Part shown: one piece after another, positions 52,216 through 52,611 of the stretch
Layout: each line of letters opens with the position of its first letter
Numbering within the stretch: position 1 is the first letter of the stretch
DNA from: Escherichia coli
Lineage (GTDB): Bacteria; Pseudomonadota; Gammaproteobacteria; Enterobacterales; Enterobacteriaceae
DNA: 64,000 nucleotides
NCBI RefSeq assembly: GCF_003334315.1
Contig: NZ_QOWR01000016.1
Direction: 5' to 3' (one strand)
Notes under the pieces: model-generated
Database searches by the model: none
Told to the model about the DNA's origin: nothing
The model's input: only the letters and a program-made list of their open reading frames with translations
Translations under genes and position numbers: made by a program

Positions 52216-52611
52216 TTATGAGTGGTCATTAAAGGCATCCTTAATCCACTCAACCTCATTCCCGGTGAAGGCTACCACATCGAACCGGCAATCCACAGTA
52301 TCAAAACTCCCATTATGACGCGCGAGCCACAAGCGGGCAGTCTGTAATAATTTGTGTTGTTTGCTGCGGGTCACACTGGCTGCCGCGCCGCCATAAAGCG
52401 CAGAGCGGCGATAGCGTACCTCGACAAAAATGGTGGTCCGGCCTTCACGCATTATCAGATCGATCTCGCCGCCACGCTCGTTCACGTTAGCGGCGATAAA
52501 CCGCAGTCCTTTGCCTTCCAGCCAGCGACGCGCTTGTGCTTCCCACGCATCGCCGGTCTGTTTGGTGGTTAACTGACGGGGACTACCTGACCTTGTTGGT
52601 ACTGTAGCCAT
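52216..52611 (-). CDS. yraN: UPF0102 family protein (putative endonuclease fold)
   Basis: 131-aa ORF; matches YraN; 5' end overlaps lpoA 3' end by ~43 nt. Confidence 0.85.

Follow-up and report, generated by a model that had tools for sequence, protein, structure and literature searches.

The 43-nt lpoA/yraN overlap of Escherichia coli and a predicted ribosome-binding site conserved within lpoA codons

In the stretch of Escherichia coli DNA analysed here (64,000 nt, hereafter the window), the yraN gene begins before the lpoA gene has ended, on the same strand and in a different reading frame. This raises the question of whether yraN truly starts inside lpoA and, if so, how its start codon is recognised within a gene that is itself being translated. 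Long overlaps in bacterial annotations are frequently start-site errors, and this general observation speaks for the alternative that the annotated start is wrong, that YraN begins 3' of the lpoA stop codon and that there is hence no functional overlap. We favour another reading, to which we assign a probability of about 0.9: the overlap is genuine, yraN is translated from the ATG at 52611, and its Shine-Dalgarno (SD) sequence lies in selected synonymous lpoA codons within AU-rich, unstructured surroundings.

A preliminary description of this locus, made from the sequence alone, had named the genes and reported an out-of-frame overlap of about 43 nt. The list of open reading frames, the protein family matches and RefSeq bear out the gene identities, and the coordinates of the overlap proved exact to the base (Table 1). 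In RefSeq/PGAP, lpoA and yraN occupy 1296..3332 and 3290..3685 of the corresponding locus (L001), which matches the overlap, and a second locus from a strain that is 97.6% identical (L002) has the same layout. On the lpoA side, the overlap runs from the third base of Ser665 onward and includes the last 14 sense codons and the stop codon. On the yraN side, it comprises the first 14 codons and one base. The two frames differ (43 mod 3 = 1), such that position 3 of an lpoA codon is position 1 of a yraN codon. A megablast search found the DNA of this locus in 5425 of 5426 complete E. coli genomes. The 43-nt lpoA/yraN overlap is a genuine same-strand overlapping gene pair at an operon junction of the ordinary type, and it is already known as part of the standard E. 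coli annotation.

Table 1. Positions of the genes and initiation signals around the lpoA/yraN junction in the window.
Feature	Position	Strand	Description
lpoA CDS	52569..54605	(-)	678 aa + TAA at 52571-52569; ORF list and RefSeq annotation of identical DNA
yraN CDS	52216..52611	(-)	131 aa + stop; ORF list, PF02021, TIGR00252, RefSeq
lpoA/yraN overlap	52569..52611	(-)	43 nt, two different frames
yraN start ATG	52609..52611	(-)	Third base of lpoA Ser665 (TCA) and TG of Trp666 (TGG)
In-frame TAA upstream of yraN	52624..52626	(-)	12 nt (four codons) before the ATG
Predicted SD core AGGA for yraN	52619..52622	(-)	7-nt spacer to the ATG; AGG is lpoA codon Arg662
AU-rich ribosome-binding zone (predicted)	52605..52628	(-)	lpoA codons -19..-12: ATT AAC AGG AAC/G TTA TCA TGG CTA
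diaA	51606..52196	(-)	GTG start; NF008138 DiaA, 442 bits; RefSeq
dolP (yraP)	51021..51596	(-)	NF008247, 324.6 bits; RefSeq

We determined which start codons are available to yraN. The list of open reading frames gives the ATG at 52611 as the earliest start codon 3' of the in-frame TAA (52626-52624), and because this stop codon lies so close upstream, no longer yraN is possible in E. coli. The preliminary description had considered that a shorter yraN with a clear ribosome-binding site might remove the overlap. Such a start was not found: a scan of the E. coli sequence identified no ATG, GTG or TTG in yraN codons 2-42, and the next in-frame candidate is a GTG at codon 43 (52485-52483), within the Pfam domain and past helix 1. 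Since a start at codon 43 would delete helix 1 (residues 16-33), the ATG at 52611 is the only workable start in E. coli. In the literature on ribosome profiling and translational coupling, we found no direct experimental evidence for the yraN start. Specifically, yraN is absent from the supplements of TRAINSPOTTER, INRI-seq and the Salmonella riboproteogenomics paper, and the text of the Ribo-RET preprint does not mention it.

Conservation of the overlap in other species had also been proposed as a check. We scanned one genome per species with YraN and analysed the best 80 of 192 confirmed loci. Among these, 36 distinct sequences derive from Enterobacterales, including Escherichia, Citrobacter, Enterobacter, Kluyvera, Klebsiella, Raoultella, Lelliottia, Atlantibacter, Siccibacter, Erwinia, Acerihabitans and relatives. 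In all 36, lpoA and yraN share exactly 43 nt. Synteny is kept across the Enterobacterales loci, in which LpoA and YraN are 51-97% and 53-98% identical, respectively.

The nucleotides directly upstream of the yraN start read AACAGGAACTTATC-ATG, which the lpoA frame across the SD sequence and start codon translates as Asn-Arg-Asn-Leu-Ser-Trp (AAC AGG AAC TTA TCA TGG). The SD core is only 4 nt long, and its duplex energy is about -4.4 kcal/mol. Its distance from the start codon falls within 5-10 nt, and the motif is maintained against lpoA codon preference. At the codon that provides the SD core, all 36 Enterobacterales sequences among the best 80 of 192 loci use the rare arginine codon AGG. These sequences are phylogenetically related, so that counts over them are not counts of independent events, but neighbouring synonymous sites are near saturation. 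By comparison, AGG accounts for 8 of the 829 other lpoA arginine codons (1.0%) and for none of the 92 codons in three other conserved arginine columns within the last 70 lpoA codons. The rare leucine codon TTA (Leu664) shows the same tendency, with 32 of 36 sequences using it at the yraN site versus 6.6% of other lpoA leucine codons. Third-position entropy is 0.35 in codons -19..-13, as opposed to 1.09 upstream and 0.97 in the body of the overlap, and the GC content around the ATG (-25 to +12) is 0.37, compared to a background of 0.58 in lpoA. The yraN start itself occupies one fixed position in the 36 sequences (best 80 of 192 loci), where it is ATG in 32, GTG in three and TTG in one, and never CTG. 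In the lpoA frame, this variation falls on the third base of the codon before an invariant tryptophan.

Within E. coli, a 45-nt zone containing the SD sequence and ATG is kept with at most two mismatches in 5425 of 5426 complete genomes. Two variant strains have zone mismatches consisting of AAC to AAG (LpoA N663K) and a synonymous GTG to GTA change, and both leave the SD sequence and ATG intact. Judged by codon usage and synonymous-site variation, selection acts specifically on the predicted initiation region embedded in lpoA, which indicates purifying selection on the ribosome-binding site across Enterobacterales. As the overlap has the same length in 36 sequences and the synonymous sites of the ribosome-binding zone are constrained, it is not a chance extension of an open reading frame.

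Codon 663 of lpoA (52616-52618, minus strand) is itself variable. It encodes Asn (AAC) in the window, while all other Enterobacteriaceae that we examined have Lys (AAG, or AAA in three). Lys663 also seems to prevail in E. coli: over the 45-nt zone, only 1502 of 5425 genomes match the window exactly, and both variant strains mentioned above have AAG. The change lies directly 3' of the yraN SD core, which reads AGGAAC instead of AGGAAG.

These patterns bear on the possibility of a misannotated start. The first 12-14 residues of YraN are poorly conserved and predicted to be disordered, and YraN proteins of other lineages begin at the equivalents of residues 10-18, which would both suit a start downstream of the lpoA stop codon. 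Against this, E. coli has no ATG, GTG or TTG that could serve before codon 43, and the GTG at residue 23 in a single Kluyvera sequence is not conserved. Moreover, it is the upstream ATG, GTG or TTG together with its AGG-encoded SD sequence that is kept against codon bias. We consider a misplaced start highly improbable.

With the start codon placed at 52611, we assessed how it might be recognised. The junction folds no better than shuffled sequences (z-score -0.45 for the single sequence), and its centroid fold leaves the SD sequence and the first two bases of the AUG unpaired. An alifold consensus of 15 species contained no conserved RNA structure at the junction (-1.17 kcal/mol, three pairs, no covariation), and a scan of the whole window at the gathering threshold found no Rfam families in 49-56 kb. 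A model in which RNA structure masks the ribosome-binding site until upstream translation unmasks it was rejected based on the unpaired SD sequence, the z-score and the empty consensus fold.

Direct, SD-led initiation on the polycistronic lpoA mRNA, at a site that AU-rich codons would keep accessible, is the best-supported mechanism. The ribosome-binding site would be written into the last 19 lpoA codons by means of the rare AGG (Arg662), the rare TTA (Leu664) and TCA (Ser665), and 30S subunits would bind it directly on the polycistronic message. Ribosomes traversing lpoA may alternately keep the site open and occlude it. The expected result is a low output of YraN that is loosely tied to lpoA translation, with no strict termination-reinitiation. 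The translational coupling of yraN to lpoA that the preliminary description had suggested is plausible.

A stricter form of coupling would have ribosomes that terminate at the TAA at 52571-52569 move back 43 nt to reinitiate, making YraN wholly dependent on lpoA. The genes do overlap in a co-oriented, compact cluster, and the junction has overlaps of 4 nt and 1 nt, lengths that this mechanism typically involves, in five more distant loci (L053, L059, L060, L070 and L073). In E. coli, however, the stop codon lies 43 nt downstream of the start rather than within the 1-4 nt or so that is typical of termination-reinitiation. In addition, yraN has its own conserved SD sequence with canonical spacing that is predicted to be unpaired, which is what independent initiation needs, while reinitiation needs less. 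We regard strict termination-reinitiation as unlikely, and direct initiation at the embedded site as the better account of the junction.

The preliminary description had offered an internal promoter within the cluster as a second option. If a promoter in the 3' end of lpoA drove yraN and diaA independently, the conserved nucleotides could be promoter elements instead of a ribosome-binding site. Nucleotide conservation at 52605-52628 is indeed strong, and the cluster has known downstream promoters, namely two sigma-E promoters immediately upstream of dolP (PMC7806268). Nevertheless, a scan of the minus strand from 50900 to 54900 for the sigma-70 consensus revealed no sigma-70-like promoter near the lpoA/yraN junction. 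The only match in this range, at 53971-53944, is located ~1.3 kb upstream of the junction. As the scan covered the sigma-70 consensus only, its outcome does no more than weaken this alternative. The conserved block also corresponds to SD-N7-ATG in content and spacing and leaves too little room for a transcript leader. The internal promoter is left unsupported by these results, and we deem it very unlikely as the source of the conserved nucleotides, which fit a ribosome-binding site better.

The wider lpoA-yraN-diaA-dolP cluster of the preliminary description is tightly packed. The 43-nt lpoA/yraN overlap is followed by a 19-nt gap between yraN and diaA (52197-52215) and a 9-nt gap between diaA and dolP (51597-51605). 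The proposal that the four genes form one transcription unit has to be qualified, since the sigma-E promoters at dolP (PMC7806268) are at odds with a simple single unit. Considering that only 9 nt separate diaA from dolP, these published promoters must sit within upstream coding sequence. The lpoA-yraN-diaA order was found by tblastn in nearly all gammaproteobacterial and many betaproteobacterial loci among the best 80 of 192, and a neighbourhood of yraN, a gmhA/diaA-like gene and a BON lipoprotein reaches as far as Neisseria (PMC5387315). Elsewhere in the window, between 19073 and 36778, Rfam matches include the greA, rimP and S15 leaders, SraG, naRNA4 and two tRNAs, which fit the greA-nusA/infB-pnp region of the E. 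coli chromosome.

LpoA is an outer-membrane lipoprotein that activates PBP1A. Its C-terminal domain matches the Haemophilus influenzae LpoA structures 3CKM and 5KCN with E-values of about 1e-45, and its tail motif, C-x-I/V-x-R-x-L/M-S/T-W-x-x-Y-Q-x-G-x-x-V-P, is common to H. influenzae LpoA and lies within both structures. Within the overlap, the LpoA tail is 84% identical between sequence pairs, versus 61% for YraN residues 2-14. The lpoA frame retains a normal codon-position pattern there, with a third-position entropy of 0.97 compared to 1.09 upstream. Residue conservation and codon pattern both point to lpoA as the dominant frame in the overlap. Full-length LpoA matched no NCBIfam family at E <= 0.001, even though RefSeq names the protein LpoA; this name presumably rests on another type of evidence than NCBIfam. 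At its 5' end, the lpoA open reading frame extends 10 codons past the annotated ATG (54605) to an in-frame TTG at 54635, with RefSeq taking the ATG. The divergent rsmI gene starts at 54670, 64 nt away.

The relation between the frames invites one further explanation, namely that a programmed -1 frameshift in the overlap produces an LpoA-YraN fusion. Relative to lpoA, yraN is in the -1 frame, and there is a CCCC run within the overlap. However, the lpoA frame here (GTC CCC GTC) offers no slippery heptamer of the form X XXY YYZ, the stretch varies between species (GTC CCC GCC; ATC GTC CCG GCC), and there is no conserved structure downstream. Fusing LpoA, an exported lipoprotein, to YraN, a cytoplasmic nuclease, would also make little sense. 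Lacking a heptamer and conservation, and joining proteins from incompatible compartments, the fusion was rejected, and we give it almost no chance.

We next consider the protein that this start codon would produce. YraN matches PF02021 over residues 24-114 (E-value of 1.2e-24) and scores 202.8 bits against TIGR00252, well above the cut-off of 69.05. In an alignment of 38 YraN sequences, E49, D51 and E64 are invariant and R66 is nearly so, with Lys in one sequence. These matches place it in the YraN/UPF0102 family, and the conserved PD-(D/E)XK-type residues make it a predicted nuclease. The idea that E. coli YraN is inactive because EVR replaces EVK was rejected, as EVR is usual in the gamma- and betaproteobacterial homologues that were recovered. 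The AlphaFold model shows an alpha-beta fold with a mean pLDDT of 83.

A recent preprint (10.1101/2024.02.06.579203) describes YraN as a PD-(D/E)XK single-stranded DNA endonuclease that has co-evolved with the ComM helicase and works alongside it in D-loop processing during natural transformation; it does not mention lpoA or the overlap. The E. coli protein resembles this ComM partner through its full-length family match, E49, D51 and the E64-V-R66 motif, while the experimental work concerned Legionella, Acinetobacter and Vibrio rather than E. coli. The preliminary description had called YraN a putative nuclease-fold protein. The fold stands, whereas "putative" is out of date in light of the reported endonuclease.

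The part of YraN encoded within lpoA lies outside this conserved core. Residues 1-12 have a pLDDT below 50 and are predicted to be disordered, the NCBIfam YraN profiles align from residues 10-15, and Gly20 is the first residue conserved throughout the 38-sequence alignment. Junctions outside the lineage with the 43-nt overlap place this leader in context. In two Morganella psychrotolerans loci (L037 and L038; about 2895-2990), the genes do not overlap and are separated by a spacer of 78-79 nt. Morganella YraN is shorter, its ATG aligning to E. coli residue 14 and having its own SD sequence, and the equivalent LpoA arginines are encoded by CGC CGG where Enterobacteriaceae use AGG. Among more distant gamma- and betaproteobacteria in the best 80 of 192 loci, the junction shows overlaps of 62, 47, 23-26, 17, 14, 4 or 1 nt, or gaps of 3-42 nt in other loci. 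Distant YraN proteins mostly start 3-8 residues before the equivalent of the conserved Gly20.

Given the absence of an overlap in Morganella and the different junctions of more distant taxa, the 14 YraN codons inside lpoA look like a lineage-specific N-terminal extension, predicted to be disordered. We infer that, in an ancestor shared by Enterobacteriaceae, Erwiniaceae and Pectobacteriaceae, the yraN start shifted into lpoA by ~14 codons. This migration would have added a poorly conserved, probably disordered leader (residues 1-14) before a core that begins around Gly20, and the arrangement may have been frozen afterwards. As Salmonella, Yersinia, Serratia, Vibrio, Haemophilus and Pseudomonas fall outside the best 80 of 192 loci, the origin of the overlap is only bracketed by this comparison.

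Other lineages have overlaps of their own at this junction. Apparently independent overlaps of 47 and 62 nt occur between lpoA-like genes and yraN in metagenome-assembled genomes of Tolumonas (L040) and a member of the Moraxellaceae (L051), at ~2983-3044, whereas the overlaps in several loci of Thiodiazotropha and Chromatiaceae measure 4 nt or 1 nt. The start assignments in these four groups follow from the logic of the open reading frames only.

The position of the yraN start has consequences for genetics. As quoted in PMC2625361, the Keio deletion design joins a 50-nt upstream arm, which ends with the start codon, to ATTCCGGGGATCCGTCGACC. Going by this quoted part of the design, the Keio yraN deletion should turn TCA TGG of lpoA into TCA TGA and thereby end LpoA at Ser665, and the conserved 13-residue tail, W666-S678, would be missing. 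In a synthetic-lethal screen with a lengthened Lpp (lpp+21), the yraN mutant was scored together with lpoA, lpoB, mrcA and mrcB, which the authors considered a technical artefact in the case of yraN (PMC8824477). Truncation of LpoA may be a simpler explanation for this score, as polarity on dolP would be. In a study of thermotolerance, on the other hand, a yraN plasmid complemented the yraN mutant at least partially (PMC5828445), and so not every yraN phenotype need come from lpoA.

These observations can be combined into a broader reading. The 43-nt overlap might be a selected, lineage-defining device of Enterobacterales, derived from start-codon migration, that ties the output of a recombination nuclease to the translation of an activator of cell-wall synthesis. 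The Keio deletion, with ATTCCGGGG after the start codon, would then truncate LpoA, and envelope phenotypes of yraN mutants, such as the synthetic lethality with lpp+21, would be LpoA phenotypes. We put this combination forward tentatively, and as a whole it is more doubtful than probable.

The overlap itself matters little, being correctly annotated and located at an ordinary operon junction. Still, the junction is a clean textbook example of a ribosome-binding site kept inside another gene via synonymous codon selection, and the comparison with Morganella and more distant taxa illustrates the migration of a start codon into the gene before it. For practical purposes, any yraN deletion that begins right after the start codon also costs LpoA its conserved 13 C-terminal residues, and a yraN phenotype seen in a knockout library should therefore be checked against lpoA. 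A clean yraN-null allele would result from synonymous changes in lpoA, namely AGG to CGT and TCA to TCC. We regard the evidence from codons and the caveat about knockouts as useful footnotes rather than discoveries.

Finally, we compared the junction to known systems. It is the same as the lpoA (yraM)-yraN junction of E. coli K-12 and RefSeq, with identical genes, start and stop codons and 43-nt overlap, and the window differs only by the minority LpoA Asn663 allele (AAC), which lies outside the feature itself. With the short overlaps that are common in operons (ATGA, TAATG/TGATG), lpoA/yraN shares co-directional neighbours in one operon and a downstream start inside the upstream open reading frame. 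It differs from them in the 43-nt length of the overlap and in having a separate SD sequence, while its stop and start codons are not adjacent. Compared to these short overlaps, the mechanism at lpoA/yraN is probably independent initiation within a translated open reading frame. The leader itself has a parallel in overprinted N-terminal extensions that arise through start-codon migration. As in those, the extra 14 codons of YraN lie wholly inside the upstream gene and are restricted to a lineage, and the leader that they encode is less conserved than the LpoA frame and predicted to be disordered.
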